From Escherichia phage U1G, in the sequence record NC_070872.1: a DNA stretch of 64,000 bases; one strand, given 5' to 3'. Below are positions 3,045 to 61,476 of this stretch, in pieces. Under the pieces are notes generated by a model. It saw nothing but the letters and a program-made list of their open reading frames with translations, did no database searches and was not told where the DNA came from. Position 1 is the first letter of the stretch. Each line of letters begins with the position of its first letter. A program made the position numbers and the translations under genes.

Positions 3045-3238
3045 TATAATGCGTAAATCACTTATTTTAGGTAATAAATCTGACGTACAGAAGATGAAGG
3101 AACGTCTGGCTACTAAGCAACAGACATCTGAACCAGTACGTAAGATTGTTACCTTCAATCATCCTGATGCATACAAATGAACTGGCCTATCTCAATAACC
3201 ATGCTTGCACTGTTAACCTACGGTGCATTAGTAGAATT

Positions 3239-3270
3239 AGGAGTCCTCCAATAGGAGGCTCCTATTTTTT
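3239..3270 (+). terminator. putative rho-independent terminator
   Basis: aggagtcctcc/ggaggctcct imperfect hairpin followed by ATTTTTT. Confidence 0.5.
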
Positions 3271-3313
3271 ATTCTTGAATAGTTAGATATGTATTTAAAT
3301 AGGAGAAATAACC

Positions 3314-26442: not shown

Positions 26443-27095
26443 TAGGAAAGAAATTTAATAGATTGACTGTAGTCAGGTTCAGTCACAAAGACAAATACTA
26501 TGCAAAGCATTGGGAATGCCTTTGTGACTGTGGGAATACTACTATAGTCAACAATCAAAAATTAAAGAGTGGTCATACAAGAAGTTGTGGATGTTTACAC
26601 AAAGAATGCCTACGTAACTATAAAGATGGTCGTTCTAAGGAACTACTATATAAGGTTTACTACGGCATCCTTGACCGCTGCCATAATGAAAAGTGTTCCA
26701 CTTATTACAAATATGGGGCTAAGGGCATAAGTGTTTGCGATGAGTGGAAAAATTCATACGAAACTTTCCGAGATTGGGCATTATCTTCTGGTTATGCAGC
26801 AGGTCTTAGTATCGACAGGATTGATGCCTATAAAGGATATTCTCCAGACAACTGTAGATGGGCAAATAGAAGTACCCAACAAACTAACAAAAGGGTTTGG
26901 AGTACAACTCCTTACGTTAGCTACAGTAAGTCAAAAAATAAATGGGTAGGTAGAATTACCCATTTGGGTAAGAGAATAGAAATCCGGGTAGATAGAGATC
27001 TAGATACTGTTATGAATGCAGTTATTGCTTATGTATTAGCTAATAACTTGGTTGAACAGGAGAAGGTACTTCGTAATGCAGGACTTATTAAATAA
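26439..27095 (+). CDS. free-standing homing endonuclease-like ORF (Zn-ribbon plus AP2-like domain) inserted in the DNA polymerase gene
   Basis: FNRLTVV...WECLCDCGNTTIV...GHTRSCGC pattern, C-terminal NKWVGRITHLGKRIEIRV; ATGA overlap with the polymerase N-fragment stop; different frame from both polymerase parts. Confidence 0.6.
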   Translation: MIGKKFNRLTVVRFSHKDKYYAKHWECLCDCGNTTIVNNQKLKSGHTRSCGCLHKECLRNYKDGRSKELLYKVYYGILDRCHNEKCSTYYKYGAKGISVCDEWKNSYETFRDWALSSGYAAGLSIDRIDAYKGYSPDNCRWANRSTQQTNKRVWSTTPYVSYSKSKNKWVGRITHLGKRIEIRVDRDLDTVMNAVIAYVLANNLVEQEKVLRNAGLIK

Positions 27096-28047
27096 ATTAG
27101 TTAGCATAAAGGATAGAGTAACCCTGGATGACTATGACGAGTTAATACAATTAGCTAGTAAATATGGCATGCAGGAACAAGTATCTGAATGCTTTGACTA
27201 TGAGGGTGGATGGTTGTTTTGTGGGCTAGACTTTGCGTCCTTAGAGGATCGCATATCAGCCCTAACAACCAAAGACCCTAATAAATTGCGTGTGTATACT
27301 GACGGGTTTGACGGTCATTCACTCAGAGCTAAATTTTATTTCGGTGAACAAATGCCGGATATTGATGACTCTGTAGAAAGCATCAACTCTATACAGAAAA
27401 AATATAAAGCCTTACGTAGCGAATCGAAAGCACCTACTTTCTTACTGACCTACGGCGGAACTTATATGGGCTTAATGAAAAACTGTGGCTTCTCGGAAGA
27501 GAAGGCTAAATTAATTGAGTCCAGATACCACGAAATGTATACGGTTAGTGATGCCTGGGTTCAGGCTAAGCTAGACGAAGCTGCTAAGACTGGTTATGTA
27601 ACTGCTGCATTTGGTTTGAGAGTGCGTACTCCTTTACTGGCTCAGGTTTTACGTGGGACATGTAAGACCCCATATGAAGCAGAAGCTGAAGGCAGGACTG
27701 CTGGTAATGCATTAGGTCAAAGCTGGTGTCTACTGAATAATCGTGCTGGCTCAGAGTTTATGCGTAAAGTCAGAACCAGTGAGTTCAGATTAGATATACG
27801 TCCTTGTATTCACATTCATGATGCCCAATACTTCATGATTCGTGACAACATGGATACCTTGCAGTACACGAACAAGCACTTGGTTGAAGCCGTTAACTGG
27901 CAAGACCATCCTGATATTGCTCATCCAGAAGTTGGTTTGGGTGGGGAACTATCCTTGTTTTACCCAACGTGGGCTAACGAGATTGAAATTCCAAATCACG
28001 CTACCCCAGATGAAGTTCATCAAATAATTCAAAAGGCATTCGCATGA
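27076..28047 (+). CDS. family A DNA polymerase, C-terminal fragment (palm/fingers)
   Basis: Motif A LDFASLEDRISAL, motif B KAPTFLLTYGGTYMG, motif C IHIHDAQYF; AGGAGAAGG upstream of ATG 27076 (longest ORF starts TTG 27052). Confidence 0.7.
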   Translation: MQDLLNKLVSIKDRVTLDDYDELIQLASKYGMQEQVSECFDYEGGWLFCGLDFASLEDRISALTTKDPNKLRVYTDGFDGHSLRAKFYFGEQMPDIDDSVESINSIQKKYKALRSESKAPTFLLTYGGTYMGLMKNCGFSEEKAKLIESRYHEMYTVSDAWVQAKLDEAAKTGYVTAAFGLRVRTPLLAQVLRGTCKTPYEAEAEGRTAGNALGQSWCLLNNRAGSEFMRKVRTSEFRLDIRPCIHIHDAQYFMIRDNMDTLQYTNKHLVEAVNWQDHPDIAHPEVGLGGELSLFYPTWANEIEIPNHATPDEVHQIIQKAFA

Positions 28048-37325: not shown

Positions 37326-40300
37326 TTAGTTAGTAAGGTTGAGCCAAGGGTTCAGGTTATGGGCACGTAAGCCTTGACCGAAGCCCCAGGAGTAACCGAG
37401 ATTGCCTTGTGCAGCAATACTGAATATGTTGTCCTGAATAGGTAAACCAACATTACCAAACATGGTAGGAGTTGGAGCCAATATAGCCATAGCTGCATGT
37501 ACCGGGTTATTACGAATCATGGATACTGCAATTTTTGCAGAACGAATCTTAAAGTTATAGAACCACATTAAACCAACACTTTCCATATATCCACGGAAGC
37601 GACCAGGTAAACGGTCGTAGTTAATGAACTCTTCCGTTACACGCCCCAGTGCTTCTTCACGAGTCTTACCTTTACGCTGAGTCAAATCATCATAGATGAT
37701 TGCTTTAGCAATAAAGTCAGAGTACTCAACCGTCTTCTGGATACCCTGGAAGAGAGCAGTATCCTTAGTGATAAGAGCATAACGTCCAGCGTTGCGTACA
37801 GACTTAGGTAACTTATCAGCCAGTTTATCCATGTATTCGTGAAGTTTACCTTCGGTAATCAGGATGTCATCACGTCCAATACCTGCATCTGCAATTGAAG
37901 AGAACTCACCCGCTTCTAACAGAGGCCAAATACTCATACGCTTATGGCTATCAGTGATGGACTGAATCTCAGCCTTAAGCTTACGAATCTGGTTCGGGTT
38001 AGTAGCTGCACGTAATTCTGCTTCTGCATCTACCTGACGCAGACGAGATTTCAGGTACTGATTAATCTCAGCAGTCTTCTGTGGAATGCTCTTAGCAATG
38101 TTCTTAACAGGTACACCACGAGCAACCATCTGGTAAAGGTTAGCCAGGAAGTTAACAGCAGGTACAACTACTGACTTAACCACAATCAGAGTCTTAGCTT
38201 CTTTAACTAAGTTCTGAACCAAGTTCTCACCACCCATTACATACTTATAGGCACGGTTACCGAAGACACCCAGCATAGCTTTCTTGAAGGTATCCAGTGT
38301 TTCTGGGGACCAACGAGAATTACCAGACCAGGCATCACCAACAGAAGCTGCACGATAACCTAGTGCATCGTTGAGCATGTCACGACGTACCCACAGCTCA
38401 CCCGGGCCAAACAGACTTTCTGCTTTCTGACGAGTTTCACTGTTCATCAGCTTAAGTGCATCAGCAGTTACTGGGTCCAGTTTAGAACCAAGAAGGTTAA
38501 CGTACTGAGACTTATTAGAGACAGACATCTTAATGTCGTTTTCATACATGCTATGCAGGTTCTCAATCAGCATATCGTTGAAACGCTGGGCCTTAGCTTC
38601 CTCCACCTGACGTCCACGCCATACACCAATTGCACGAGCAAGATGGTTCTCACCTTCAATGTGCTTCAGCATATTAGGGTCAATGGATTGCTCGTAAGCA
38701 ACCACATTACCATTGGCATCATATACAGGCAGCAGTGGTTCATTACCACGTTCACCACGAGCCAGTGCTTTAGTAATACGGTCTACAGAAGGCTTGTCAG
38801 TAATACGACCTGCTACCATGGTTCCCATCGTAAAGCCTGTACCAAGGTCTACACCACCAGCAGTATTGCGAACGTTCTGTAGGATACCCTGTGAGAATGG
38901 AGCCTGTGCCTGTACAGGTGCGAAGTAGTAGCTACGTGCTGGACCACGGTTAGCAGAGCTACCCTGATAAGTACCCAGACGTACATAGGATTTTTCAATC
39001 AAATCAGCAAATTGGCTATCTTCAGCAACAATCAGGTTAACACCTTGTTTAGTCTCACCAGGAATATACCCTTTGTACTGGTTCAGGGTTGCACGAGTAT
39101 CCGACTTGGCTTTAGCCATTTCATCTTTACGCTGACCAACCAGGTAAGAGGTAGCAAAGTCCATGCCTTCAGTTTCTGTTTGAGCCAGTGAAGATAACAT
39201 CTCACGGTCAGTCTTACTCATTGCTTCCAGTGCATACAGAGTAATCAGTTTATCCAGTTGAGCTACGTCTACAGTAGAACGTGCAGACTGGCGTTCTCCC
39301 AGCATACGAGAGATTGCTGTAGCATTACGCAGCAGGTTATTACCAACTGTACCGTTAATCATGTACTGAGCCAGTTGCTTAGATTTACGGCTAATCAAAG
39401 GCCAGTTACGTCCTGCTTGTTTCTGCAAATCTGCTTCCAGTTTATTAACCTCACGGTCAACAATCTTCTGGTCAGTCAGCAAGTCACGGATTTCAGCCAG
39501 AGACATAGTGTCACGCAAAACAGCTAGGTCAGTTTTACCCATTCCAGTATGCATTGCTTTCCACTCATCATTAGTCAGCTTACGGCTGAACTTAGATGCG
39601 ATAGTGGTAGGCAAATGTTCACGGAACTGTTGACGGTCAGCCTGTACCTGTGCACGTACTGCTTTAATCAAATCGTATACAGAAGCATTACTCTTAGTAC
39701 GACCAGTTAGGTCATTAACCAGGTCATGGAAAGGTTGCCATACTTTACCCTGGTTCATTGCAGCCATAACACCTTCAGCTACGATTTCACCATTCTTCTC
39801 TGTAGCAATAGCAGCTATTAGTTGTGCAGCATGAGCAGCACCTTTGACCAGTGGGTTCTTGGTATTAGCTGCAACTTCACGAGCACCTTCCAAAGCACGG
39901 GTAGACAGTACATCAATAGAATCCACCAGATACTGGTTAGCACGGTCAATAGCATTACCACTAGGAGTAGCAACGGAATCATAGAAGGATTGTGCATTAA
40001 GACTCGTCTGCATGATTGTCTGAGCCAGTGCATCCATACCTTCCTGTACGTTAGTGGCTTTAGTATCACCTGCTACGCGAGCATTCAGACTAGCCATTGC
40101 AGCAGTACCAATGTTAGTCAGCATTGCATCAACTGTATTACCAGATTGCTTATCTGCTTTCATAACTGGAATGTCAGCCAGTACTTTGCGTACTTCTTCA
40201 CTTACCATTGCCAGACCAACAAAGGTAGGTAGTAAGGAAGAACGACCCTGTGCATCAAACTCAATATTGTTAGCACCCATGATGGTATCGAACTTCTGTT

Positions 40301-43300
40301 GAGCGTAGTAACGGTCAGCAGGGTTAGTACTATCTGGGTCAGCCATGAACGCTTCAACGGTCAGGTTCTTAGTAACATGCGTGTAGTATTCCTGTGCACG
40401 AGCCAAAGCAGCTGGGTTAATAGCAGCCTCAGTAGCCAGAGCAGCAACAATGTTAGTGAAAAGACGTTGTTCCTGCATATTCATAGTGAAGCCATGAGCC
40501 TGAACATCACGAGTTACTTTAGTTGCATTCACTACTGCATCAGAGAACTTACCTTTACGAATTACTTGCTGTACTGGTTCAGAACCAATGTAGTCAGTAA
40601 TCAGTTTATCGAAGGTTTTGCCCAACTCTTCCAGACGAGTATTGTCACCATATGCTTTGTTATGGAACAAAGTAGTATCTTTGGCTACAGCAGCAGTAGG
40701 AGCTTGTCCACGCATTACTACAGCAGAGTTAAACAATAAGCCGGAGAACATATCATCAGCATTAGCTGGTGCTTTCTTACGACCAAATACCAGACGCTTG
40801 ATTGCTTCATATACAGCCTGAACCATTGTTTTCAGTGCAGTAGTTTTCTTCTGCTTACTAATCAGTTCACGGTTAGTTAAGCCCCATGCCATGTACTCAT
40901 TAAGTGCAGCAGCTTTAGCCATTGCTGGTTCAATGAAGCCATTAGACAAGTGACCATTAATGGTATTAAGTGCATCAGCATATGCCTCACGTACTGCCGG
41001 GGATTCATCCTTAACATCCAGAGCACGGAATTGATTCATCAGGTCTTCAATATTCTGTACTGCTTCATTAGGAGTACCTTCGTAGTGAGCCAGTACAGAT
41101 TCAAAAGTAGAAGCATGTACTAATTCATGAACCAGAGTCTCTAAGGAAGGAGTAACTAAGTAGATGGTCTTATCTTCGAAGTTAGTCCAGCCGTATGCAT
41201 TACCAGCTTCAGCAGCTTCAATATCTTCCGGTGCTGGACGAGTAATGTTCTTCTCAATAGCATAGGCATCCAGTTGAGAAGGTGTACCGTAAACAACCTT
41301 GTAGTCTTTAGCAGCAAGGGATTTCTGTACTTCTTTCAGTACTGCTTGCTGTTCCGGAGACATCTCTTTAGCCAGCTTAGAGATAGCAGTATTAGACAAC
41401 AGACGTACACCAGATTTCAGTACACGACCAACCTGTTCCATTGCTGGTACTTCTTTCACTGGTTCTGCTTTAGCAGCACGTACTGCATCACGACGCTTGT
41501 TTAATTCAGCATCAAACAGTTCGTTCAGCTTAGCTACTTGTTGGTCTACGGTCAGACCTTCCAGAGAGATTTTACCGTTGTTCACATAAGGAGCACCAAC
41601 AGCAGCCATCTGGTCAACAGTAGTCTGTACCTGGTTCATTACTTTGTGGCGAATATCCACACCCAGTGCAATGTTACGCAGGTTACGTTCAATCTGTTCA
41701 GCACCAATACGTAACAAGTCATCAGTAGCACCCTCACGTTGGTCATATTCCAGAGCAGATTTAGCGATAGCCTGTTTGGTTTCATCAGACAGTTTGCTGA
41801 AGTCTACGTTCTTCATGAACTTAGAGAAGGAGTCATAAACATTCTTGATAGGGTTACCCTGCCAGGAAGTGTATACAGCCTCGTTAGCTTTACGACTTGC
41901 ATCAGTGATGTTATTGATACCAATGTTCATACCATCAAAGATTTTCAGAGTATTCTTCGGAGCACCCTTCATAGTAGAAAGGGTCTGCATCATCATGCCA
42001 TCACCAGTACCAATGGTCATAAATGGAATACCTGCAACACCTGCCTGTGAAGGAGCATAGATGCTCATTGGCACACGCATACGGTCATCTAAGTTGGTAG
42101 CCAGTACTTGGTTAGCAACATCAGTATTCTCACTACCAGCAATGTAGAAAGTCTGTGAGCCAGTCTCAATCATTGGAGCCAGTGGAGACAATGATTCCTG
42201 GATTTCATTCAGTTCTTTCTGTGTTAAGAAATCACCCTTCTTCCATGTTGGGTCTTTTTCTTTTTCTGCCAGCTTAGCCTGTACTGCTTGTTGGAACATG
42301 TCTTGCAGAACCAGAGACTGAATCTGGGTAGCCTTCTGCAAGTTCTCAGTAGAGTGCATCAGACCTTCGCCAACAGTATTACGAATACCAGTACGCATTG
42401 GTTCAACGAACAAGTGAAGCATGTTTTCTTGCAGGTTCTTCAGGGCATTCCCAGATACGGTAAACTTCTGAGGGTCTAACTTACCAGTCAGAGCACCTTC
42501 TACCTGTTGAATAGACAGTTGACCTTTACGCATAACTGGAACATTACCAGTCAGTGCTTCCATGGACGTAAGGAAAGTATCCAGCATAGCCTGAGCATCA
42601 GCCTCAGACGCAGCCTCCTTACCAAACATTGCCATAGCTGGGGAAATGCTAGGGTCAGCAGCGCGAGCTTGCAGAACATCACTGAAGCGTTCATAGATGG
42701 TGTCAGTAATTGCACTAACCATCTTGCCAGCAATACCACGAGCACCGGAACCATAGATGGTAATAGTCAGTGGGTTTTTAGCGATACCACGTTTCAGGTC
42801 CAAAGTACCGTCTTCATTCAAGTTAAAGTCTTTAATGAACAGGTCCATTAACTTCTGAAGATGATTCATCTGGTTCATAACCGGAACGTTGTTACGGTAA
42901 GTAGTACGTAACTCATTCAGTGCTTGTTGCAGACCATTAGTAGATGCTTCATACAAGTCAACACTATCATCCTGTGAACGATGTTCGTTCATAGTCTTAC
43001 CGGCTTTACCGAAGAACAGACCACCTTTAGCAGTATTCTTAATCCAGTCTGAAGTAAACCTACCACCAGTCATTAATACCATTGCGTTGATTGGTCCGTT
43101 AGTTACACCATCGGCTTCAACGTACAGTGGGGTATTAAAGTTAGCACGGTCATCACTGTTCAGGTAACGGGCATACTCCATCAGAGCCATGAGAGCTACG
43201 AAGGATTTATCGCCACCAAGAGACGTCTTCAGAATATCTACTGCATTGGCAGGTAAGTGACCAGACTTATCAAACTCAACCATCATATCTACAGCAGGTT

Positions 43301-46300
43301 TCAGATTACCTTCCAGAGCTTTAGTCAGCTTTTCAGACATAGCTTCACGGGACATGTTATGTACCTTGATACCTAATGCCTGAGCCAGACCTAACTGGAA
43401 GTCAGAGAATGTTTGGCTGTTTTCATTACTCAAGTCAATAGTAGAGAAGGTTGGCAGAATTGCTTCACGAACCAGTTTACTGGATTGTGGATTGTTCTTA
43501 CCTAACATCTGCATACGACCTACACGGGTCATGTTGTAACCATAGTGAATAGGCGTATCCAGACCATTCTCCTGTTCCTGTAATTGATTGATTACACCAA
43601 ACAAAGAGTCATATGCCATAGACACTGACAGGTTCTTACCTTCCAGTGATTTAGCAGTATTCACGTTCAGCAGTTCAGGATTAAGAGTACCAGCACCCAT
43701 CAGTTCCAGAATGTTGTCACGACCTAATGCTTCATAGAAGTTAACCATCGGCATGTGTACACGGAACTCGGTAGCCTGTTCTGCTTTAAGAGCAGCTTTC
43801 TGCTCTGGGGTATTCTTAACAGCAGGGTTACGTAACTGAGTTTGAGCCACGGAAGGAATATCATCACCAAAGTACATTTTCTCTTCTGGTTCTACGAGAA
43901 CAGCTTCCTCGATAGCAGTAGGGAACTTGTTAATGGCATCGTTATCGTCCAGCTTCTCAATAGTATATAGACCAATAGTCTTATTGGAGTCTGGGTCAAT
44001 CTCAGACACATCAAGCATAGATTCTTTAACTTCACCCATCTCAATGAGAGAAGACAGAATCTCTGTAGCCATTGCCATTGGAATACCTTTGGTATAACCC
44101 AGTGGTGCATTTGGATTACGGTCCAAACCCCAGTAAGATTCAATCTTTTGAGCCAGTGAGTTAGTAGCTTCAACCAGAGTCTGAGCATTCTCGAATTCAG
44201 CCAGAATACCTTCTGGTAACAGAGATGCTTCTACACCAGTAATAGCAGCTACGTCTTTCATATCTTTAACAGCAGCATTCTGTGTAGCAGTCAGTCGCCA
44301 TTGCAGACCAGCAAGTACAGCAGTTTCTAACAACTGGTCATTAAACTTAAAGGTATCCCCATCTTTCTCTACGATGTTAAGTAACTTACCACCTACCCAA
44401 CGGTTAGCTTCAGTACCTTCTGCAAAACGTTTACCTACGTTCTTATTAGCAAGGAACTTAGCCAGACGGTCAGACAAAGTAGTCTTCAGAGTTTCGCCAA
44501 AATCAAATAAGTCCTGATAACGCTTAATCACATCACTTGTGAGAGCGTTATTTTCTTTTTGAGTGAATGCTTCAAAGCGAGCAGCAGAAGACAGTGCTTT
44601 CTTAACATCAGTCAAAGGGGATTCAGAACCAATGGTTCGAGACTTAGATTCTTCCGGCAGAGTAAATGCCTTAAGGAACTGGTTCGGTGTCTTGTCATTG
44701 TTATAGACAGGGAACACTGTTTCCATTTGAGATAGGGGTTTACCACCAACGGTATAGTCTGCTTTCAGTTGAGCCAGAGATACCTCTATCTTCTCAACGT
44801 TATTGGTATTACGCCCAGACGTATCTACACCTATTTGAATCAGTGCATTGTTTGCTTCTACGAATGATTGAACAGTATTGAATTGTTCAGGAGTCAGCTT
44901 CTGATTATCAAACAGTTGCAATGATACAAACGGTTGTTCACTGCCTTTATAGAAGGTAGAGCGAATAGCACCAGTATCTAATGACATATCACGATAACCA
45001 TCATGACCAAATACGTCCGACAAGCTAATGTGGTCACCATTAGAGCCAACAACAGTACCGTCAGCAAAGAGCCAAGGACTCTCTTTACGATCACCATACT
45101 TATTAAGAGTATCTTGAGAAATAGTATTCTCTTTTACATAAGCATCTCTTTCAGATTCAGTAGACTGTACATCAGTATCCTGTTTTTCAGACTGGTTCTC
45201 AGGCTCTTTTACAGACTGTGGTTTAGACTCTTTAATAGTAGATTCTGTTTTAACAGCTTCACTAACAGAGGGTTTAGTCTGTACAGTAGAGGTAACTGGT
45301 TCCTGTTTCATAACAGGAGTTTCATCAACCTGATTCACTGGTTCATTGGTCTGTTGAGACTGAGTGGCATCAAGACCACCTTGACGGAACTCTTTAACTA
45401 CCTGGGCAGCAGGCTTGTCCAGACGTGAATCCAATGGGGTAACTTTCACATGAGAAACATTAAGCTCCGGGTAAGCCGTAGCAAGTGCATTAGCAATATC
45501 AGCTACGGTCTTGGCCTCCAGTCCTACTTGCTGGGCAAACTTAACAGACTTGGTATCATACGGATTGACACCGAGGCCAGTACGACTACGTACCCATTCA
45601 CGGGAAGGAGTAAGAGCCTGATAATGGACAGACTTATTCTTATCCGCATTCCCAGAAATCAGATGCTCATTCAACGCTCCGACCTTATTCTGCATGTGCT
45701 GGGCGAACTTCATAAAGTCGTCGAGATAAGCGGAAGCCAAATCGAAGTTACCAGAGTTGTACGCAGAACGAATGCGTTTAGCATGTTGCAACGCAGAGTA
45801 CTGACCTTCATTAGAACGAGACTCGTCGGTTTTAATTTGTTTACTAACAATATCTTGAGGACGTAAGCCTAATTCTTCTGCTTTAGCGTCGAATTCACGT
45901 GCACCCTGTAACAAGGCAGCAGCCGATTGCAGGGCAGCACGTTGTCTATTCCCCAGTGTAATCTTACCTTCACTTGCATGTTTCAGAACCATGTTCACTG
46001 AATCTGCATCCAGTACTTCTGGAGACATATCAGCAGCCATAGCAATGTTGTTTGCTTGGGTTTGGTTAGCTTCTTCAGTAGCTTTCAGTTTACCCGCTTC
46101 AGCCTGCTCCTGAATCATGGAATGAATGGCACGGAATGCACGAAGTACCTTCGGTGTATTCTGAACGTTAGCCATCAGGCCAGAGAACTGGTCAACAATA
46201 TTAGCAGCATGAGAACCTTGTTCCAGGTTAGCCAGAGCACCTGGGTCACGGTTAATGAAGCTATCCATAGACATGATATTGTCATACATCTGGATTGCAG

Positions 46301-48080
46301 CTTCCATTTGAACGTTAGGGTCTTCAGCAGTATTAACCAGGTCAGCCATCTTCTGAATAGCTTCAACACGGTTAGTGGAACCAGAAACAGCTTCACGGAT
46401 TGCTGGGTTAGCTTGTTCCAGTTCTACTGGGTCAAACTTCATTGCCTGAGTTAAGTCAGCAGCATACTGGGTAGCAGCAGCTTTCTCTTCAGGGGAAATG
46501 TCCATTGCATCTACTGCTTCCTGTACAGTTTCTTGTGCTTGCTCTGCCTGAGCAGTAGCTTCTTGTGCAGCAGCATTAACCGTAGCATCTGATACAGGAG
46601 ATGCTTGTTCATTACGCTTAGCAACTTCTTCACCACGTTGAACCAGAATGTTAGTAATAGGAGAGGCTACTTTTGCTAGTGCCTTACCAGCCAGAGAAGC
46701 ACCAGCCAGGGTAGTACGTACAGCAGGACCAACGGCAGCACCAGCAGCCTTAACAGTTGCACCAGGAGCTTGAGCAACTCCAGCAGAACCAAAGCCGTAC
46801 AGTGCACCAAGACCTGCTTGTTCACCGACACCTTTAAGCAAATCACGCTTAGCATCTACATTACCTTGAATTGCTTTATTCTGTGCAAACTGACTAGTAC
46901 CAGACTGAATACCTTCTTCTACGGTTTCACGGAGCATGTTAGAGCCAGCACCAGCCAGTGAACCTACCTTAAGTGGGTTAAGTTCAAATTTGGATACCAG
47001 TGGACCAGTAGCAGCAGCAACTGGAGCAGTTAATCCAGCAGCAATGATACCTGTTTCAGATGCAGTCTGACGACGTGCTTCTTCAGGAGATAAGCCATCT
47101 TTAATATGTTGTTGGTATACAGGAGATTTGGCAGCCAGTTCACTAAATGGCATTTCCATAATTTCATTAGCAGTCTGTTGGTATGCACCACCTGCTTCCA
47201 TGCCACCAATTGCAATAGCAGGTGCAGCAACACGACCAGCAGACAATGCAACCTGTGCAGGACGAGAACCTAATTCAGCAGCTAAGGTAATACCTTTAAC
47301 AGCTTTATCTCCACCTACCATTACTTTGCCAAGTGCAGATACACCACGGATAAGAGGACCACCAGTAAACAGAGAACCAACACCTTCACTCAGCCCGTCA
47401 GAAGCAGCCATACCATTATCAAGTGTATTAGCAACAGAATCAAAAGCATCACGACCAATGCGAGACAGAGAGGCAACCAAACTGCTCTCCCCATTTTTAA
47501 TGTCTTCTTCATAGAGTTTCTGGTTCTTTTGTGCAGAAATCTGGTTCTGATTCTGAACAACCTTACGGGTAGCATTCAGTGCATCAGACTGTAGGTTGTG
47601 TACACCTTTGTTCAACCAGTCAAGACCGGAAGCAATGGTTGCCCCGGCATTATCATTGACCAGACCTGTGCCAAGAGCAGCAATACCCCCAAGGGTATTA
47701 GCAACACCAAGACCAACACCAGAAAGAGTATCGCCAAATGCTTCTGCGTTAGTACGTTGTTTAGATAAGTCCTGACGTACAGCATCAGCAGCATTAGCTC
47801 GGCTATTAAGAATCTGTAGACCTTGCTCATTACCATATTTATTAAGAATTTCTAATGGGGAGGCTTGAGTGAAATCTGCCTGAAGTGAACCTGGTTCGAA
47901 TGCACCGATTCCAAGATTACCTACACGACCAGTTTGGAGATTGTAAGCATTCTCTGGGGTTAATTGGAAAGGGCTTTGCCCTTGTGCAGCTTGCTTCTGA
48001 GAGGTTGCAGTAGAGACATCGACTTGCTTAGCATTAGTGATGCTGTCTGCGAAACCTGCCAGACGGTCAAATGTTGACAT
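37326..48080 (-). CDS. virion-encapsidated RNA polymerase (giant vRNAP, N4 gp50-like)
   Basis: ~3584-aa ORF at the promoter-distal end of the late operon; size and position match the N4 vRNAP; ATG 48080 preceded by AGGAAA (longest ORF starts TTG 48098). Confidence 0.75.
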   Translation of the reverse strand: MSTFDRLAGFADSITNAKQVDVSTATSQKQAAQGQSPFQLTPENAYNLQTGRVGNLGIGAFEPGSLQADFTQASPLEILNKYGNEQGLQILNSRANAADAVRQDLSKQRTNAEAFGDTLSGVGLGVANTLGGIAALGTGLVNDNAGATIASGLDWLNKGVHNLQSDALNATRKVVQNQNQISAQKNQKLYEEDIKNGESSLVASLSRIGRDAFDSVANTLDNGMAASDGLSEGVGSLFTGGPLIRGVSALGKVMVGGDKAVKGITLAAELGSRPAQVALSAGRVAAPAIAIGGMEAGGAYQQTANEIMEMPFSELAAKSPVYQQHIKDGLSPEEARRQTASETGIIAAGLTAPVAAATGPLVSKFELNPLKVGSLAGAGSNMLRETVEEGIQSGTSQFAQNKAIQGNVDAKRDLLKGVGEQAGLGALYGFGSAGVAQAPGATVKAAGAAVGPAVRTTLAGASLAGKALAKVASPITNILVQRGEEVAKRNEQASPVSDATVNAAAQEATAQAEQAQETVQEAVDAMDISPEEKAAATQYAADLTQAMKFDPVELEQANPAIREAVSGSTNRVEAIQKMADLVNTAEDPNVQMEAAIQMYDNIMSMDSFINRDPGALANLEQGSHAANIVDQFSGLMANVQNTPKVLRAFRAIHSMIQEQAEAGKLKATEEANQTQANNIAMAADMSPEVLDADSVNMVLKHASEGKITLGNRQRAALQSAAALLQGAREFDAKAEELGLRPQDIVSKQIKTDESRSNEGQYSALQHAKRIRSAYNSGNFDLASAYLDDFMKFAQHMQNKVGALNEHLISGNADKNKSVHYQALTPSREWVRSRTGLGVNPYDTKSVKFAQQVGLEAKTVADIANALATAYPELNVSHVKVTPLDSRLDKPAAQVVKEFRQGGLDATQSQQTNEPVNQVDETPVMKQEPVTSTVQTKPSVSEAVKTESTIKESKPQSVKEPENQSEKQDTDVQSTESERDAYVKENTISQDTLNKYGDRKESPWLFADGTVVGSNGDHISLSDVFGHDGYRDMSLDTGAIRSTFYKGSEQPFVSLQLFDNQKLTPEQFNTVQSFVEANNALIQIGVDTSGRNTNNVEKIEVSLAQLKADYTVGGKPLSQMETVFPVYNNDKTPNQFLKAFTLPEESKSRTIGSESPLTDVKKALSSAARFEAFTQKENNALTSDVIKRYQDLFDFGETLKTTLSDRLAKFLANKNVGKRFAEGTEANRWVGGKLLNIVEKDGDTFKFNDQLLETAVLAGLQWRLTATQNAAVKDMKDVAAITGVEASLLPEGILAEFENAQTLVEATNSLAQKIESYWGLDRNPNAPLGYTKGIPMAMATEILSSLIEMGEVKESMLDVSEIDPDSNKTIGLYTIEKLDDNDAINKFPTAIEEAVLVEPEEKMYFGDDIPSVAQTQLRNPAVKNTPEQKAALKAEQATEFRVHMPMVNFYEALGRDNILELMGAGTLNPELLNVNTAKSLEGKNLSVSMAYDSLFGVINQLQEQENGLDTPIHYGYNMTRVGRMQMLGKNNPQSSKLVREAILPTFSTIDLSNENSQTFSDFQLGLAQALGIKVHNMSREAMSEKLTKALEGNLKPAVDMMVEFDKSGHLPANAVDILKTSLGGDKSFVALMALMEYARYLNSDDRANFNTPLYVEADGVTNGPINAMVLMTGGRFTSDWIKNTAKGGLFFGKAGKTMNEHRSQDDSVDLYEASTNGLQQALNELRTTYRNNVPVMNQMNHLQKLMDLFIKDFNLNEDGTLDLKRGIAKNPLTITIYGSGARGIAGKMVSAITDTIYERFSDVLQARAADPSISPAMAMFGKEAASEADAQAMLDTFLTSMEALTGNVPVMRKGQLSIQQVEGALTGKLDPQKFTVSGNALKNLQENMLHLFVEPMRTGIRNTVGEGLMHSTENLQKATQIQSLVLQDMFQQAVQAKLAEKEKDPTWKKGDFLTQKELNEIQESLSPLAPMIETGSQTFYIAGSENTDVANQVLATNLDDRMRVPMSIYAPSQAGVAGIPFMTIGTGDGMMMQTLSTMKGAPKNTLKIFDGMNIGINNITDASRKANEAVYTSWQGNPIKNVYDSFSKFMKNVDFSKLSDETKQAIAKSALEYDQREGATDDLLRIGAEQIERNLRNIALGVDIRHKVMNQVQTTVDQMAAVGAPYVNNGKISLEGLTVDQQVAKLNELFDAELNKRRDAVRAAKAEPVKEVPAMEQVGRVLKSGVRLLSNTAISKLAKEMSPEQQAVLKEVQKSLAAKDYKVVYGTPSQLDAYAIEKNITRPAPEDIEAAEAGNAYGWTNFEDKTIYLVTPSLETLVHELVHASTFESVLAHYEGTPNEAVQNIEDLMNQFRALDVKDESPAVREAYADALNTINGHLSNGFIEPAMAKAAALNEYMAWGLTNRELISKQKKTTALKTMVQAVYEAIKRLVFGRKKAPANADDMFSGLLFNSAVVMRGQAPTAAVAKDTTLFHNKAYGDNTRLEELGKTFDKLITDYIGSEPVQQVIRKGKFSDAVVNATKVTRDVQAHGFTMNMQEQRLFTNIVAALATEAAINPAALARAQEYYTHVTKNLTVEAFMADPDSTNPADRYYAQQKFDTIMGANNIEFDAQGRSSLLPTFVGLAMVSEEVRKVLADIPVMKADKQSGNTVDAMLTNIGTAAMASLNARVAGDTKATNVQEGMDALAQTIMQTSLNAQSFYDSVATPSGNAIDRANQYLVDSIDVLSTRALEGAREVAANTKNPLVKGAAHAAQLIAAIATEKNGEIVAEGVMAAMNQGKVWQPFHDLVNDLTGRTKSNASVYDLIKAVRAQVQADRQQFREHLPTTIASKFSRKLTNDEWKAMHTGMGKTDLAVLRDTMSLAEIRDLLTDQKIVDREVNKLEADLQKQAGRNWPLISRKSKQLAQYMINGTVGNNLLRNATAISRMLGERQSARSTVDVAQLDKLITLYALEAMSKTDREMLSSLAQTETEGMDFATSYLVGQRKDEMAKAKSDTRATLNQYKGYIPGETKQGVNLIVAEDSQFADLIEKSYVRLGTYQGSSANRGPARSYYFAPVQAQAPFSQGILQNVRNTAGGVDLGTGFTMGTMVAGRITDKPSVDRITKALARGERGNEPLLPVYDANGNVVAYEQSIDPNMLKHIEGENHLARAIGVWRGRQVEEAKAQRFNDMLIENLHSMYENDIKMSVSNKSQYVNLLGSKLDPVTADALKLMNSETRQKAESLFGPGELWVRRDMLNDALGYRAASVGDAWSGNSRWSPETLDTFKKAMLGVFGNRAYKYVMGGENLVQNLVKEAKTLIVVKSVVVPAVNFLANLYQMVARGVPVKNIAKSIPQKTAEINQYLKSRLRQVDAEAELRAATNPNQIRKLKAEIQSITDSHKRMSIWPLLEAGEFSSIADAGIGRDDILITEGKLHEYMDKLADKLPKSVRNAGRYALITKDTALFQGIQKTVEYSDFIAKAIIYDDLTQRKGKTREEALGRVTEEFINYDRLPGRFRGYMESVGLMWFYNFKIRSAKIAVSMIRNNPVHAAMAILAPTPTMFGNVGLPIQDNIFSIAAQGNLGYSWGFGQGLRAHNLNPWLNLTN

Positions 48081-48142
48081 AGCATGTTTCCTGTTCAAAC
48101 TTATATCGTATATAGGAAGCTTACTCTACAGTAAGCCTGTGT

Positions 48143-48165
48143 AAGAAAAAAGCCCCGAAGGGCTT
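48143..48165 (-). terminator. terminator/attenuator hairpin upstream of the vRNAP gene
   Basis: On - strand: gccc-TTCG-gggc followed by TTTTTT. Confidence 0.5.
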
Positions 48166-48174
48166 TTATTAGTA

Positions 48175-50138
48175 TTACCGATTTTGTCTTGGTTGCATAT
48201 ACTCAGGCAAACCTTGTGCCTGACGTAGGTAACGTGCAGCACGTTCTTCATCTTCCTTGGCTCGTGCTCTGTCCACACTAGCCTGTGACCGAAAACCTCT
48301 TGGAGCCAGGTTATCTGGGTCTGCTTGTACTTGGGCTTGTGCAGCTTGTAGCATTGCAGCAGCTTTAGTAACAGCCTCCTGACGAGCAGGTAACAATGCA
48401 GTAAGACCTGTTTGTCCAGTGTTAATCTTGTTCTGGGTATTTGTCAGTGCAGCTACAGCAGCATCATAAGCAGTCTGTGCTGCCTGAATATTCTGCATAG
48501 CTTGAGCACGTCCGAGATTACGTACACTGCCTTCCAGTGGTTCGCCTCGTTGTACACCCTCAATTAACTGATCTACCAGACGGTCATTAAGACGCATACC
48601 ATTACCAGCTTCATTAGTAATGAATGGGTTAACTGCATCAATAGCACGGCTAATGTACCCTTCTGGTACACCGGTCTGTGCACGTTGCATAACAGCAGCA
48701 GCCATAGCTGGTGACATATTTCCACGTTGAGAAATATCAGTTAGTCGGTTAAGTACCCAGTTACGGTCAGCACCCTTAAAGTCACCATCCAGTAGACGAT
48801 TAGCAATCTCACCTACTGGAGTATTATCGGTAACAGTACCCAGGAAATCGGTATTAAGACTACCAGTGTTATCCTGCATAGAACGAGTACCAATCATACC
48901 TTGAGCCAAGGTAGATACTGCCCGATTTCCCTGATTATTCTGAATCAGAGCGAATGGGTCAGCACCTACTTCAGCTTGAGCAATAACAGGTTTAATCTGT
49001 TCCCAAGTCATATCCTTATAAGCACCTGGGGTAGAATTAGGTAAAGCAGCCCAGGTATCTTTAAGGTTACCATTCTTACGAGCCTCAAAAATAGCCTTAC
49101 CAATCTTCTCCTGGTTTTCAGGGGAAAGAGGCTGATTCTTCCAATCTGAGCCAAGAACTTTGGGAGCAAAGTCTTGCAGAGTAGCCTGGTTAATCTGGAA
49201 TGCACCAACAGGGGAAGCACCTTGATTTGTCTTCATGACATCCTGGTGTTTAATTACATCACCTATACTCATTTGAGTAATAGGGGTAGATGTACCAGCA
49301 AACTGATAAGTAACATCATAAGGAGAACCCTGACGAGTACCAGCAGTACCAGGAGCAGATGTAGCACCAACATTATTGCCGTAAACACCAGGGTATGCAC
49401 GAGCAAGCATTTCCTGTAAACGTGCCTGAGCAACTGGAGACAGATTCTTACTATATGCTTCTGCTAACAAACGAGCATCATTAGGGTTCTCAGCACCACG
49501 GGTAATTTGAGACATCACACCCATAGCTGCCTGACTATCAGCATCATTACGTTGAGCCACACCCAAATCAAAACGGTTCTGTGCTTGGTTAATAGCCTGA
49601 CCACCCTGCCCTTGTAGACGACTTAACATATCCAGTTGTTGGTCAGCAGGTAGTGCAGATAACGCTTCTCGCGTCTGACCCAATGCAGCATTAATACGAT
49701 TCTGGTCACCAGACTGATAAGCCTCGGACAATAAACGAATAGCTGGGGATGCATTATCTAATGCAGAGTCAGTATTCTGTAAGCGACCAAAACGATAAGC
49801 ATTATAGTCATTGGTTCCCTGCTGACCTTGTTGAGTCAGAAGAGTACCTGCTCGTTCATCCAGATTCTGGAGAGTACGCTGACTTACCAATGAAGGGTCA
49901 ACCCCTGAAACAATGCACCAGATGCCAAAGCATTACGATACTCAGTAGGGTCTTGATACTGCATAGCATTCATCATGACGGCATTGCCAGCCTCCTGCTT
50001 GGCAGCGTTCTGGAAATTACCCAGTGCATCACTTAAGCCGGAGGTGGCATTACCAATCATGTTGCCAAATGTGCGAATGCTGTCACCAACTCCGGAGAAG
50101 TTAGGTGCATAAACATTACGCCATGTAATTTGAGCCAT
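48175..50138 (-). CDS. internal virion protein (N4 gp51/52-like); two ORFs in this assembly
   Basis: 571-aa ORF has only a TTG start with no SD and 7-nt overlap with the 84-aa ORF; +1 nt in C4 (49902-49905) fuses them (~654 aa). Confidence 0.45.
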
Positions 50139-50150: not shown

Positions 50151-50594
50151 TTAACGGGTTAATTTATTAGCTGCAATATAAGCATCAGCTGAGGACTGGT
50201 CACGGTTCTCTGCTGTAGCACGACTACGAGCACGGTCTTCCAATGCAGTGTTATAGGATTTAATCTGATTATTCAGGTTAGTGTTAGTAACACTCTTAGT
50301 AAAGTTCAACTGGTCTTTGGCTAACTTATTAGCCTGGAAACCACTATAGATATTCGCTAATGAACCAAGTGCACCCAGTCCTAACTGGAAGGTAGGTACA
50401 TTCAAGCCCAACTGATTAGCTGAACCAGACATGAAAGAAGCAGGTGTAGATGTACCCAAATTCGTACCCATACCAATAGTTGCACCTGGGTTATAGTTCA
50501 TAGCCGGGGTATTAAAGTTCTGATTGTTATTAGGCATCCAAGACATAGCAGCTGGCTGTGGAGTTGGGTTGCCTGTTAAGAATGACAAATCCAT
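50151..50594 (-). CDS. virion protein (hypothetical)
   Basis: ATG preceded by AGGAGA; late-operon context. Confidence 0.5.
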   Translation of the reverse strand: MDLSFLTGNPTPQPAAMSWMPNNNQNFNTPAMNYNPGATIGMGTNLGTSTPASFMSGSANQLGLNVPTFQLGLGALGSLANIYSGFQANKLAKDQLNFTKSVTNTNLNNQIKSYNTALEDRARSRATAENRDQSSADAYIAANKLTR

Positions 50595-50607
50595 GGGGAT
50601 TCTCCTG

Positions 50608-53262
50608 TTAAACAAGGTCAGTATTAAGAGTCATATCAGAGTAGTTGCCAACCATGTCTAAGGACAAGTCAGCTATATCTGAACCAGTCATGAGAGTACG
50701 TGATAGGAAAGAATCCAACGACTCCATTGACACGAATTGCATAGGGTCAATTACACCCTGTCCAGCAGTACCAAACATTTCTTCATACTGCTTATTGATT
50801 GCCATCATATCAGTATTGTACTGCTGCATTACTTTCTCTGCTTTCTGAATAGTAGCAGCCGTGGATGCATTAATATACTGACTAATACCATTACCAACTG
50901 AACTGGTAAGCTGCATGATGTTTTGGGCATTCATCATTTCACTTGCCAGAGTGGACAAAGATGTACCGGTAGACAGGGCAGTACCAACATTCATAGCTAC
51001 CATTGAAGCAATAGCTGCAATGATAAAGCCTAATTTATCACCGAACAGTGCGGTAGATACTTTAGTAACAATAGATATCAGAACCATTGCAGCAATAGCG
51101 TTCGCTACAGCACCAACAATAATGGCAGCTAATCCAACAAAACCAAGTGATGCACCAACTGCACCATATGCCCCCAGTATACCTGCACCACCAGCACCAG
51201 CTGTAAATACAGAGACAACCACAGCAACCACTACAACAACAATCTTAAATGCTCCTGTCTGATACCACTTCTGCTTAACCTTCTTATATGAGTTCATCAC
51301 TAAGTAGGAACAGGCAGTAGATAGCTGAGTACTTCGAACCAGCGACATGGAACGGTAGATATTAGTGTGCAGTGGGATAATGAATCCACTCTCCTCTGCG
51401 TCACCCATTGCTTCAGCAACATCAATGTTCACTGATTTATTTTTATATACCCTGTTATTGTGGTTTAAGCCTAGTACCCTGAGTTTACGATAGGTGTCAT
51501 TACCATCCTGCCAAAGTAACTCGTACTCCTGCATAGAATAAAATGTAGTAGTAACCTCAAGCTTCTTAGTTGAGCCAGAGTTACTAGCAGTACGTATGTT
51601 CTTACGAGTAAGAGTTATATCTCCTGCATATCTGGCTCGGAGTTGTCCCTGCTTAGCACCAGACCATGCTTGTCCTGAGTGGGTAGTTTCAGATACGTAA
51701 TTCCAACCAATGGTCATGTCATACTTGTAATGCTTATTACTATGTACCCTAAATTCCCTCTTAGGTATTACAGGGTATTCTGGCAGTGGTGAAGGAGTTC
51801 CAATAGTATGCCCTTCAGTCCTGTTCCACCATTCTACGTAAGCATCAACTGCATCGTTTGCTGCCTGATAACCTGCAATTACTGCTTCCAAAGTCGGGTA
51901 AGTTGGGTCAGGTGGGAATGCTTCAGTAGCCATCTGAAAGAAACGGTAGATGTATTCTTTAGCAGTATCCTCTGGAGTATTAAGGGATACACCAAATGTG
52001 CCATAAATGTACTGAATATCACCTATGTCCTTATTCTTCTTAAGCTCTGTGACTACTTTATCAATTTTTCCACCAGTAGCTTTATAAAGAGCTTTCTTAC
52101 AGTGGGGGTAGATTGGGTCATTCTCTACCCATTGTTTATCATTCCTAATTGGAATGAATGGGTAGAATCGGTTATCGGTAGCTTCAGTTTCAAACAGTGA
52201 ATCCAGTGCAACATTACCGGAGTTCTGTTTATAGATAAGCATTTTGGGTGTACCAACAGCAGTCATCTCAGTGTCAGTACGAGTAGTTTGGGATGAGTAC
52301 TTACGAACCTGTGTCTCTGTGGTTGTAGTGATTGTATCTGTACGTGTAACACCACCACCTATATCAACTACATTAGTAGTTACAGAAGTACTGGATTGAA
52401 CCTCACCAAACTTTTTATGAGTCATTACCCTGTCAGATACAACTACAGTCACATCATCAGGTTTCTCAGTGAATCCTCTACGGTAAACTTTAACGTAGGA
52501 GTTCCAGTTATCCACACTTGGTTCAGTAACAGTACTGTCCTCATCCGGTCTGCCATCAGAGTAAACAGAATGAGTATGTATAGTCTTAGTAAGATTGGTT
52601 GTGTTAGCAGTCGTATCACTTGAGATTGTAGTCCATAACAAAGTGGAAGGTAGGTCATCCTCCTTATCATAAACAGTAGTCGGTCCTACTACTGGTGGAT
52701 TAGTAGAAGGGGACTTATAGAATGTGTAATCAGCATAGAGATATAAAGCACCTGGTTCAAAGTTAGCAGGTGTGAATTTAATAGTAGAACCTCCATCTAA
52801 AGAGGTCATAGTAATTTCATTAGTATCTTCATCAATGTCTATGTCGAATCGTTCCATGATTCGACTTGGAGCATTCTCATAAAGATACTGGTCACACCAT
52901 TGCTCAAAGTCAGCAAAGCCTATCTCTGCTGCCTGAACATAGACTGATTCTCCAGCAGGTGGTGTAATTTGCCCTTCTATAACAGTAGGGTCAATCTTAG
53001 CCAGTACACCTAATGAAGAACCAGCCATACCAACTTCTGAATCATAGTGGTTCTTACTCCAGCTGGAGAACAGTCGCATACGAATACCCGGCCCATTCAG
53101 ATAACTATCAGAGATAGTGTCTGCCATAGTGAATCCAGTATTGGAAACAATGTTACCAATGACAACAGTCTTCATATAGTTTGGGCGTTTATGTATATCC
53201 CCTGCCATGTTATAGACAGAGGATGCTACGTATACTTTGGTCTTCCCACTGAATAAACCCAT
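50608..53262 (-). CDS. large virion protein with glycine-zipper transmembrane segments (putative ejection/channel protein)
   Basis: 884 aa; C-terminal hydrophobic run VVVVVAVVVSVFTAGAGGAGILGAYGAVGASLGFVGLAAIIVGAVANAIAAMVL. Confidence 0.45.
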   Translation of the reverse strand: MGLFSGKTKVYVASSVYNMAGDIHKRPNYMKTVVIGNIVSNTGFTMADTISDSYLNGPGIRMRLFSSWSKNHYDSEVGMAGSSLGVLAKIDPTVIEGQITPPAGESVYVQAAEIGFADFEQWCDQYLYENAPSRIMERFDIDIDEDTNEITMTSLDGGSTIKFTPANFEPGALYLYADYTFYKSPSTNPPVVGPTTVYDKEDDLPSTLLWTTISSDTTANTTNLTKTIHTHSVYSDGRPDEDSTVTEPSVDNWNSYVKVYRRGFTEKPDDVTVVVSDRVMTHKKFGEVQSSTSVTTNVVDIGGGVTRTDTITTTTETQVRKYSSQTTRTDTEMTAVGTPKMLIYKQNSGNVALDSLFETEATDNRFYPFIPIRNDKQWVENDPIYPHCKKALYKATGGKIDKVVTELKKNKDIGDIQYIYGTFGVSLNTPEDTAKEYIYRFFQMATEAFPPDPTYPTLEAVIAGYQAANDAVDAYVEWWNRTEGHTIGTPSPLPEYPVIPKREFRVHSNKHYKYDMTIGWNYVSETTHSGQAWSGAKQGQLRARYAGDITLTRKNIRTASNSGSTKKLEVTTTFYSMQEYELLWQDGNDTYRKLRVLGLNHNNRVYKNKSVNIDVAEAMGDAEESGFIIPLHTNIYRSMSLVRSTQLSTACSYLVMNSYKKVKQKWYQTGAFKIVVVVVAVVVSVFTAGAGGAGILGAYGAVGASLGFVGLAAIIVGAVANAIAAMVLISIVTKVSTALFGDKLGFIIAAIASMVAMNVGTALSTGTSLSTLASEMMNAQNIMQLTSSVGNGISQYINASTAATIQKAEKVMQQYNTDMMAINKQYEEMFGTAGQGVIDPMQFVSMESLDSFLSRTLMTGSDIADLSLDMVGNYSDMTLNTDLV

Positions 53263-60479: not shown

Positions 60480-61094
60480 TACATGCCTCCAGTGGCACAT
60501 TGCCTATTCGGTTAGCTACCCAACCATACGTAAAGTCTGGCATGTTTAATGAGGTATAGTGGTTTAGTTGTTTAGCATCAAGCAGCTTAATCATTACCTG
60601 ACATGCTGCAACTTTGCCTCGTTTTTTCTGTAATGCTTTATAAGCATTAACAGTACTTGCACCGACTTTACCATCAACCTGTATTTTAGGGTAGTCTTTG
60701 CCATCACGGGACATTTCATTAAGGGATAACTGCAACCACTTAGCCGGACGGGTTACACCAGTATTAACACCAGCATCTACCAGCTTATGCGTTACAGCAG
60801 GAGATATATCAGCGAAGGCTACGAAGTTAGGCTTAAGTACGTAGTCATCAATGTATATCTCAGCAGCCATCTCCTTAGATAAACCTTTCATAGAACCACC
60901 CCAACCATATTCAGTAGCCAGAACCTCCTTATGAGACTTAGCTACCGATTGGGTAATACCATGATTAGTTTCCCCACCTGGGTCACGAGGATTGTTTACA
61001 TAACCCCTTCCATATAGAACACTGCCCCCAGGATAGCAGCGACAACCCCTCCCACTGCACCACCTTTTGCAGCAAGTTTCTGTTTAGCTTTCAT
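60460..61094 (-). CDS. GH108-type N-acetylmuramidase endolysin (N4 gp61-like) with signal-anchor-like N-terminus; frameshifted in this assembly
   Basis: YVNNPRDPGGETNHGITQ GH108 motif; SD-preceded ATG 61094 encodes MKAKQKLAAKGGAVGGVVAAILGAVFYMEG in another frame; +1 nt in C4 (61004-61007) fuses them. Confidence 0.6.
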
Positions 61095-61476
61095 GAGAAT
61101 TTTCCTTTGGACGGAACCGTATTAATCTGCCTATGATGTTTAAGGCAAACAGTGCGATTGCAATATTGGAACCATGGGGAATATCTTCCAGGATGTGACG
61201 AGGTAATCCTGTCACCATTGGTTGGATGATATCTACAGCAGAAAATAGAATTAAACCAAACGTACTAATTTGAACGGATGCCCACTTCCAGGACTTCTTC
61301 CAGTTAGGTACTAACTCAAACTTTCTTTTAGCCTGCGAACCATGCGAATATCTCCCGTCTTGCAGCAGCCAATACACCAATAATTGCACCTGCTCCAGCC
61401 CATACCCACTTACCGAAAATTCCAGCACCAACAACTTTATGCTTAATGGTGATGAACTCTTCAATAGTAGGCTCAT
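61084..61476 (-). CDS. putative lysis-associated membrane protein (holin candidate)
   Basis: Two predicted TM helices in the C-terminal 80 aa; N-terminal 50 codons overlap the upstream ORF. Confidence 0.3.
   Translation of the reverse strand: MSLLLKSSSPLSIKLLVLEFSVSGYGLEQVQLLVYWLLQDGRYSHGSQAKRKFELVPNWKKSWKWASVQISTFGLILFSAVDIIQPMVTGLPRHILEDIPHGSNIAIALFALNIIGRLIRFRPKENSHES

Follow-up and report, generated by a model that had tools for sequence, protein, structure and literature searches.

Results

Gene organization of the ejection region

The ejection region of Escherichia phage U1G, a G7C-like podovirus related to N4, was examined within a 64,000-nt stretch of its genome record (NC_070872.1), which is referred to here as the window. 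All genes of this region are encoded on the minus strand in the order gp53, gp52, gp51 and gp50, a layout shared with G7C, where the genes were annotated by comparison with N4. At the position of gp51 the deposited sequence carries two open reading frames (ORFs) with products of 84 and 571 aa (Table 1), and RefSeq assigns the label 'virion structural protein' to both of them (YP_010659822 and YP_010659821, respectively). The ORF list gives gp52 as an ORF of 154 aa (50151-50615), preceded upstream by one of 884 aa, and the virion RNA polymerase (vRNAP) downstream of gp51 as an ORF of ~3590 aa (37326-48098), which is typical of N4-like phages. The site equivalent to the putative intrinsic terminator is annotated as a terminator in PhAPEC7. 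A scan of the region for sigma-70 promoters returned sites no more frequently than expected by chance, and a search of the whole window against Rfam at the gathering threshold gave no match.

Table 1. Features of the U1G ejection region and positions of single-base losses in the window
Feature	Position	Strand	Remarks
gp52, ortholog of the N4 gp52 outer-membrane ejection protein	50151..50594	minus	147 aa from the ATG at 50594; phrog_2646; 92.5% identity, full coverage
gp51 gene	48175..50138	minus	1964 nt as deposited; inferred true length 1965 nt
84-aa ORF, very probably artefactual, ATG start	49884..50138	minus	gp51 residues 1-79 followed by out-of-frame LTLHW and a stop; YP_010659822.1
571-aa ORF, very probably artefactual, earliest possible start TTG	48175..49890	minus	gp51 residues 84-654; YP_010659821.1
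Homopolymer run, very probably short of one base	49902..49905	minus	G4 on the coding strand, C4 on the plus strand; codons Gln78-Gly79-Val80
Conserved central domain of gp51, predicted lambda lysozyme-like fold	48940..49338	minus	residues 268-400 of the full-length protein
Putative intrinsic terminator	48148..48167	minus	GC-rich hairpin and T-run, aaaagcccttcggggcttttttt; after the gp51 stop, before the vRNAP gene
gp50, giant virion RNA polymerase	37326..48080	minus	97% identity to the VTCCBPA_322 vRNAP, full coverage, single frame
One-base loss	~12299		G5 to G4; gp25 (VWA-like protein)
One-base loss	~32817		G6 to G5; gp44 ATPase
One-base loss	~33300		A6 to A5; gp45 (SSB)
One-base loss	~35370		A7 to A6; small gp47.2-like ORF
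One-base loss	~35567		C6 to C5; intergenic
One-base loss	~49906		C5 to C4; gp51
One-base loss	~61004		C5 to C4; gp61 endolysin
One-base loss	~61326		T5 to T4; gp62 holin

The initial annotation had described the 84-aa and 571-aa ORFs, their overlap of 7 nt (49884-49890) and the restriction of the longer one to a TTG start, all of which are seen in the ORF list and in the sequence. The frame of the 571-aa ORF is -1 relative to that of the 84-aa ORF. As deposited, the coding-strand context of the G4 run is ttt cag ggg ttg acc; when one G is added to the run this becomes ttt cag ggg gtt gac cct tca ttg gta agt, and the junction is translated as ...ALFQGVDPSLVSQRTL.... The earlier proposal that one extra nucleotide in the C4 at 49902-49905 would join the two ORFs was thereby borne out, as the repaired gp51 is a 1965-nt ORF of exactly 654 aa (70.3 kDa), in which the TTG 'start' of the 571-aa ORF is the internal Leu84 codon. 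The tryptic peptide that spans the junction of the repaired protein is NALASGALFQGVDPSLVSQR. Neither the repaired gp51 nor any of ten relatives contains a cysteine, and the lack of cysteines has been noted as a trait of proteins that pass through the periplasm (PMC11445570).

Homology of the two reading frames

Profile searches placed both products on the same family. PHROG 6126, a family of 667 positions described as 'virion structural protein', is covered by the 84-aa product at positions 1-80 (E 3e-47) and by the 571-aa product at positions 85-666 (E 6e-251). Judged by this collinearity of the two pieces on PHROG 6126, the layout of the ORFs is not a chance arrangement. Weaker matches of the 84-aa product were to the N-termini of the long PHROGs 6467, 20377, 17660 and 14527, beginning at profile positions 1-6 (for PHROG 6467, with 521 positions, E 1.4e-6), and no small-protein family was found among its PHROG matches.

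The megablast search of the region returned 72 phage records, all of which represent Gamaleyavirus or other G7C-like relatives of N4 and the best of which reached 95% identity. The homologous stretch is annotated as a single 1965-nt CDS in VTCCBPA_322, G7C, PGN829.1, PW8, PBM-3, UE-M6, Bas96 and PhAPEC7. When gp51 of a relative was used as the tblastn query against the window, residues 1-80 aligned in frame -3 and residues 75-654 in frame -2. The repaired protein shares 98.5% identity over 654 aa with gp51 of VTCCBPA_322, its closest relative, and aligns end to end with those of nine other relatives, at 91-98% identity in eight of them and 85.5% in PD205.

Protein lengths in the databases follow the same pattern. 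The 571-aa sequence belongs to a 90% identity cluster of 411 members, those listed being 651-654 aa long, and the best 120 homologous clusters (65-98% identity) are of 647-662 aa except for three of 629, 578 and 447 aa, which may be truncated entries. Short matches to the 84-aa sequence were limited to the sequence itself and one metagenomic sequence of 126 aa. The gp51-type ejection proteins of Schitoviridae are expected to be single chains of about 520-700 aa; the deposited sequence encodes two pieces instead, and a chain of 654 aa is obtained once the run is repaired.

The run site was aligned across 16 Gamaleyavirus relatives, every one of which has 5 nt at this site where the window has 4, together with an unbroken gp51 of ~654 aa. 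Together with the identity of the repaired product to that of the nearest relative, this result upholds the central claim of the initial annotation that the two ORFs represent one protein. The five nucleotides are GGGGG in 12 relatives, GGGAG in three and GGGTG in one, and in 4 of the 16 the run is consequently broken at the wobble position of Gly79. Since the run is interrupted in these four relatives, it is the reading frame that is conserved and not the run or a slippery sequence. Alignments with VTCCBPA_322 and with G7C both assign the single-base gap to the window. HNH endonuclease insertions, which occur in PGN829.1 and ST4, were considered as an event at the split point and rejected; they are irrelevant to the split because they are located between gp52 and gp51.

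Probable homopolymer errors across the assembly

The Oxford Nanopore MinION SQK-LSK109 chemistry systematically under-calls homopolymers. The U1G genome was sequenced with this chemistry; Guppy was used for basecalling and Canu v1.8 for assembly at 39x coverage, and polishing was not described (PMC10754912). All 86 annotated proteins of VTCCBPA_322 were compared with the window by tblastn as a screen for broken genes, and at least six conserved genes besides gp51 were found to be frame-split or N-terminally cut. Lesions were mapped by parsing the gaps in blastn alignments with VTCCBPA_322, and G7C was used as an independent second reference. Seven of the eight gaps (Table 1) recurred against G7C, the exception being that at ~61326. 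Under strict flank matching to VTCCBPA_322, shortening was observed for 0 of 153 runs of length 4, 3 of 38 runs of length 5, 2 of 9 runs of length 6 and the 1 run of length 7, and no lengthened run was observed. The addition of one base to each of seven runs restored seven genes to full length in a single frame, with identities of 94-100%. Besides the run in gp51, the affected runs in genes are located at 12295-12298, 32817-32821, 33300-33304, 35370-35375, 61004-61007 and 61326-61329.

These losses, of which there are at least eight in runs of 5-7, recur, are one-directional and depend on run length, and they come from an error-prone and unpolished platform, which are the marks of a homopolymer artefact. 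U1G is a viable, plaque-forming phage (PMC10754912), which is incompatible with the joint presence of genuine frameshifts in gp51 and in the genes for SSB, the endolysin and the holin. The evidence points strongly to sequencing error rather than real mutation as the cause. The split of gp51 is very probably an assembly artefact in which the Nanopore-only consensus read G5 as G4; gp51 would look split because one G was dropped from a run of five, and an under-called homopolymer at this site would shift the frame at codon 79/80 and divide one gp51 gene into two apparent ones. The Uz-1 record, and likewise that of Bp4, presents gp51 as three CDSs with small deletions, and this fragmentation is presumed to be artefactual as well.

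Alternative explanations for the split

The alternative that fares best is a real one-base deletion, with a ribosome that terminates at the TAA (49886-49884) re-initiating at the TTG (49890-49888) and a 9-kDa N-terminal piece assembling non-covalently with a 61.5-kDa body. Five bases is a short run for a Nanopore deletion, and the defect is seen in only ~8% of the runs of this length in the window, so that a single site of this kind is not certainly an error; furthermore, the overlap of TTG and stop (ttggtaa) has a geometry compatible with termination-reinitiation. The initial annotation had reported no Shine-Dalgarno sequence before the TTG. This holds only in part, as an AGGGG that would be available for re-initiation lies 11 nt upstream, but this motif coincides with the G-run and could serve at most as a weak Shine-Dalgarno sequence. 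The two-piece arrangement is absent from all 16 relatives and from all of the best 120 homologous clusters. A real cut at residue 79 would also fall within the ordered leg fold of N4 gp51 (residues 52-255; PMC13434306) and would detach a conserved N-terminal segment, the counterpart of which in DEV gp72 includes residues 25-54 that bind the outer-membrane partner (PMC11445570). Finally, the same type of lesion is present in six other conserved genes, and a viable phage could not carry all of these lesions as genuine mutations. We consider a real deletion with re-initiation to be very improbable.

Programmed -1 ribosomal frameshifting, in which tRNA-Gly on GGG slips back on G GGG so that 84-aa and 654-aa products are both made, is less probable again and would be surprising. 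A ribosome would pass from the 84-aa into the 571-aa frame by a -1 shift, and the G4 run would allow perfect re-pairing of the P-site tRNA-Gly. However, the X XXY YYZ heptamer is missing from the sequence G GGG UUG because the A-site UUG cannot re-pair on GUU, and the RNA structure downstream is unremarkable (123 nt, MFE z -1.6, with 17 of 200 shuffles folding equally well). The two-frame layout was found in 0 of the 16 relatives, which keep a single frame throughout and of which four interrupt the run with A or T; programmed sites are conserved, whereas the U1G site is unique to a Nanopore-only assembly. A genuine G4, with the phage coping by recoding or by a two-piece protein, retains only a very slight probability.

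The remaining reading, that a 9-kDa small virion protein and a 61.5-kDa protein are encoded by two genuinely separate genes as the RefSeq labels for both ORFs would imply, is effectively refuted, being contradicted by the PHROG, alignment and PDB 11mn matches: the only PHROG matches of the 84-aa product are to the N-termini of long families of the gp51 type, the homology to relatives switches frame exactly at the G-run, and the C-terminal LTLHW of the 84-aa ORF has a counterpart in no relative aligned.

Identity and predicted role of gp51

A phmmer comparison of the repaired gp51 with PDB 11mn_A (N4 gp51, residues 1-359) gave an E-value of 1e-127 in an alignment that runs continuously from residue 1 to 357 across the junction, and a profile search against the same entry gave 1.7e-162. 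On the strength of this homology, U1G gp51 is an ortholog of the N4 gp51 ejection protein and hence an already known gene. The initial annotation had suggested an ejection or internal virion protein at this locus, and the suggestion is supported by the orthology and by the virion role of the N4 protein (PMC13434306). The G7C gp51 record carries the statement 'similar to 66 kDa virion protein from N4, confirmed presence in G7C virion', and N4 gp51 has been proposed to be an IVP-C homolog (PMC4819975).

In N4, gp50, gp51 and gp52 form a conserved ejection cassette. In full virions gp51 forms a helical hairpin next to the portal wing, and the protein is missing from empty particles. The recombinant fragment gp51(1-359) assembles as a decamer into a hollow channel, and its protomer is ordered over residues 52-255 in a T7 gp15-like leg fold. 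Both gp51 and gp52 insert into lipid bilayers, and in the N4 model gp52 provides the outer-membrane complex and gp51 the periplasmic tunnel, with the vRNAP next (PMC13434306). The same ejection scheme operates in DEV with gp73, gp72 and gp71, where the tunnel protein binds to its outer-membrane partner through an N-terminal helix (residues 25-54; PMC11445570). As the ejection mechanism has been shown in N4 and DEV, we infer from orthology and synteny that U1G gp51 works like N4 gp51. The cysteine-free protein of 654 aa would be packaged around the portal, would be expelled after gp52, would build a tunnel across the periplasm and would be followed by the giant virion RNA polymerase. The AlphaFold2 (AF2) model of full-length gp51 was of low confidence (pLDDT 56, pTM 0.24) and too poor for a fold search.

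Predicted lysozyme-like domain in the central part of gp51

The central segment of gp51 (Table 1) was compared with 1.84 billion cluster representatives and gave 426 matches at E <= 1e-3. In most of these it lies in the middle of a protein of 550-780 aa, and other architectures include a polyvalent protein of 3094 aa. An AF2 model of the domain, built from an alignment of 46 sequences, was confident (pLDDT 88.8, pTM 0.82), and in the full-length model the region upstream of the domain is a low-confidence linker rich in Gly, Ala and Thr. A Foldseek search of the domain model against BFVD returned, at E-values of 7e-6 to 7e-4, a 'Peptidase M15B', two baseplate hub/gp5-like proteins and a SAR endolysin transglycosylase; against the PDB nothing significant was found. 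Profile-to-sequence comparison with lambda R (NC_001416) by hhalign gave modest scores (E 9e-5 to 1.5e-4, probability 52-59%), and with a relaxed alignment hhalign paired gp51 residues 269-398 with lambda R residues 28-156. Since the relatives of lambda R among the matches listed are all at least 85% identical to it, no better profile of the lambda family could be built. The predicted structure suggests that the central domain of gp51 is likely to have a lysozyme-like fold.

Pfam and NCBIfam searches of both ORFs, 20 full-length homologs and 10 unusual domain-bearing proteins returned no meaningful family and no lysozyme model. The catalytic residue of lambda R is Glu19. A counterpart of the catalytic glutamate of the N-terminal helix was not found in the alignment of gp51 with lambda R, which begins at lambda residue 28. 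Candidate acidic residues in gp51 are position 294 (E in 82, D in 37 and Q in 21 of 151 sequences) and the invariant E390.

Within residues ~268-400, gp51 also shows motifs that recall those of lysozymes (YDV..G, G.FQI, SPENQ and W..LP). In the GenBank record of SP5M the gp51 ortholog is called a 'lysozyme containing protein'.

Discussion

Two spurious U1G 'virion structural proteins' are currently held in RefSeq (YP_010659821 and YP_010659822), and at least six further U1G genes, including those for SSB, the endolysin and the holin, are broken in the same way. U1G is a proposed therapeutic phage, and comparative and machine-learning work draws on its annotation; the record therefore needs polishing. 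Because gp51 is an established ejection protein, the biology of the phage is unchanged by this finding, and the value of the split-gene result is one of curation.

The repaired protein could be more than a passive tunnel. It is conceivable, although we hold this only tentatively, that the central module of gp51 is a divergent relative of lambda lysozyme which could cleave, or at least engage, peptidoglycan. As a part of this reading, the same lysozyme-like module might be present in myovirus baseplate hubs and a SAR endolysin, a proposal that we regard as speculative to a similar degree. In a 2026 study of N4, wall-degrading activity was reported to be missing from the ejection proteins. If true, the gp51 module would correspond to the lytic transglycosylase domain of T7 gp16, and a lysozyme-like gp51 would bear on how the N4 ejectosome crosses the peptidoglycan, a step that is open in the model.

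Comparison with known systems

[quoted passage not shown] The U1G version differs in that it has 654 aa, belongs to the Gamaleyavirus lineage, is split as deposited and is known here from its sequence. Among Gamaleyavirus, the gp51 proteins of G7C (YP_004782181.1), VTCCBPA_322, PGN829.1 and the UE phages are 91-98.5% identical to it over 651-654 aa with identical synteny; in contrast to the deposited U1G gene, each of theirs is one unbroken ORF in which the run site has 5 nt. The lambda R lysozyme, a GH104 lytic transglycosylase (PDB 1am7), is comparable with the central domain of gp51 only, and with modest scores.

More distant systems share the place and the role of gp51. In the Pseudomonas phage DEV, gp72 (521 aa) occupies the same place in the gp73-gp72-gp71 operon and has the same role as a periplasmic tunnel, forming a dodecamer around the portal and a nonameric tunnel after ejection (PMC11445570). 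The DEV protein is shorter and very divergent in sequence and, unlike N4 gp51, it showed no bilayer channel activity (PMC13434306). The similarity of T7 gp15 (internal virion protein C) to U1G gp51 was undetectable here at the sequence level, but gp15 fills the same functional slot, being the middle one of the ejection proteins and the builder of the tunnel across the periplasm; the muralytic domain of the T7 system is located on gp16 and not on gp15.

Homopolymer losses across the U1G record

Besides the site in the ejection-protein gene gp51, seven further homopolymer runs in the window are one base short relative to VTCCBPA_322, and six of these seven losses recur when the comparison is made with G7C. 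When the six runs that lie in coding sequence are each lengthened by a single base, full-length genes are recovered. Polishing is needed for the entire U1G record.

Features of the U1G window and of the gp51 region in related phages
Feature	Sequence	Position	Strand	Description
Insert in gp24 gene	window	10200-11078	+	~880 nt
Homing endonuclease in gp24 insert	window	10313-10882		189 aa; NUMOD4 + HNH_3 + AP2
Insert in DNA polymerase gene	window	26368-27138	+	~770 nt
ORF within DNA polymerase insert	window	26439-27095		218 aa, Cys/His-rich
gp25 (VWA-like)	window	12295-12298		one-base loss, gene broken/truncated
gp44 (AAA ATPase)	window	32817-32821		one-base loss, gene broken/truncated
gp45 (SSB)	window	33300-33304		one-base loss, gene broken/truncated
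gp47.2-like ORF, 56 aa	window	35370-35375		one-base loss, ORF broken/truncated
Intergenic run	window	35567-35571		one-base loss
gp61 (endolysin)	window	61004-61007		one-base loss, gene broken/truncated
gp62 (holin)	window	61326-61329		one-base loss, gene broken/truncated
gp51	Escherichia phage vB_EcoS_Uz-1, OP312987.1 (stretch L003)	1613-3572		three 'structural protein' CDSs
gp51	Bp4, KJ135004.2			three 'structural protein' CDSs
HNH homing endonuclease gene	PGN829.1 (stretch L004)	1673-2209		gp52-gp51 spacer
HNH homing endonuclease gene	ST4 (stretch L005)	~1600-2170		gp52-gp51 spacer

Insertions and divergent stretches

The gp24 ATPase gene (window 9882-11816) comprises ORFs of 106 and 224 aa parted by an insert; the halves on either side are mutually in frame, and Rfam identified no intron at this position. 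The DNA polymerase (gp39) is a single 859-aa ORF in VTCCBPA_322, whereas the corresponding window gene (24628-28047) consists of two ORFs (604 and 331 aa), likewise parted by an insert. The ORF carried by this second insert had no match in Pfam, and no group I intron was found there by Rfam at the gathering threshold; the insert is probably a free-standing insertion of the homing-endonuclease type.

Relative to VTCCBPA_322, the window also contains a 29-nt insertion at 76-104 (+), GTGTGCTCTGCACACTAGCCTTCGGCTTA, within the region that forms the terminal repeat in that phage. A short stretch in the N-terminal third of the vRNAP (45170-45300, -) is strongly divergent from VTCCBPA_322, with numerous, mutually compensating indels that leave the ORF intact; it corresponds to a low-complexity linker rich in Thr, Ser, Glu and Lys (…QSVKEPENQSEKQDTDVQSTESE…).

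Comparison of the gp51 region with related phages

The division of gp51 in the Uz-1 and Bp4 annotations arises because of four small deletions, totaling five bases relative to VTCCBPA_322, and this fragmentation is likely another artefact. Separately, the gp52-gp51 intergenic spacer lacks an HNH gene in the window and in most other Gamaleyaviruses, but carries an inserted HNH homing endonuclease gene in PGN829.1 and ST4.
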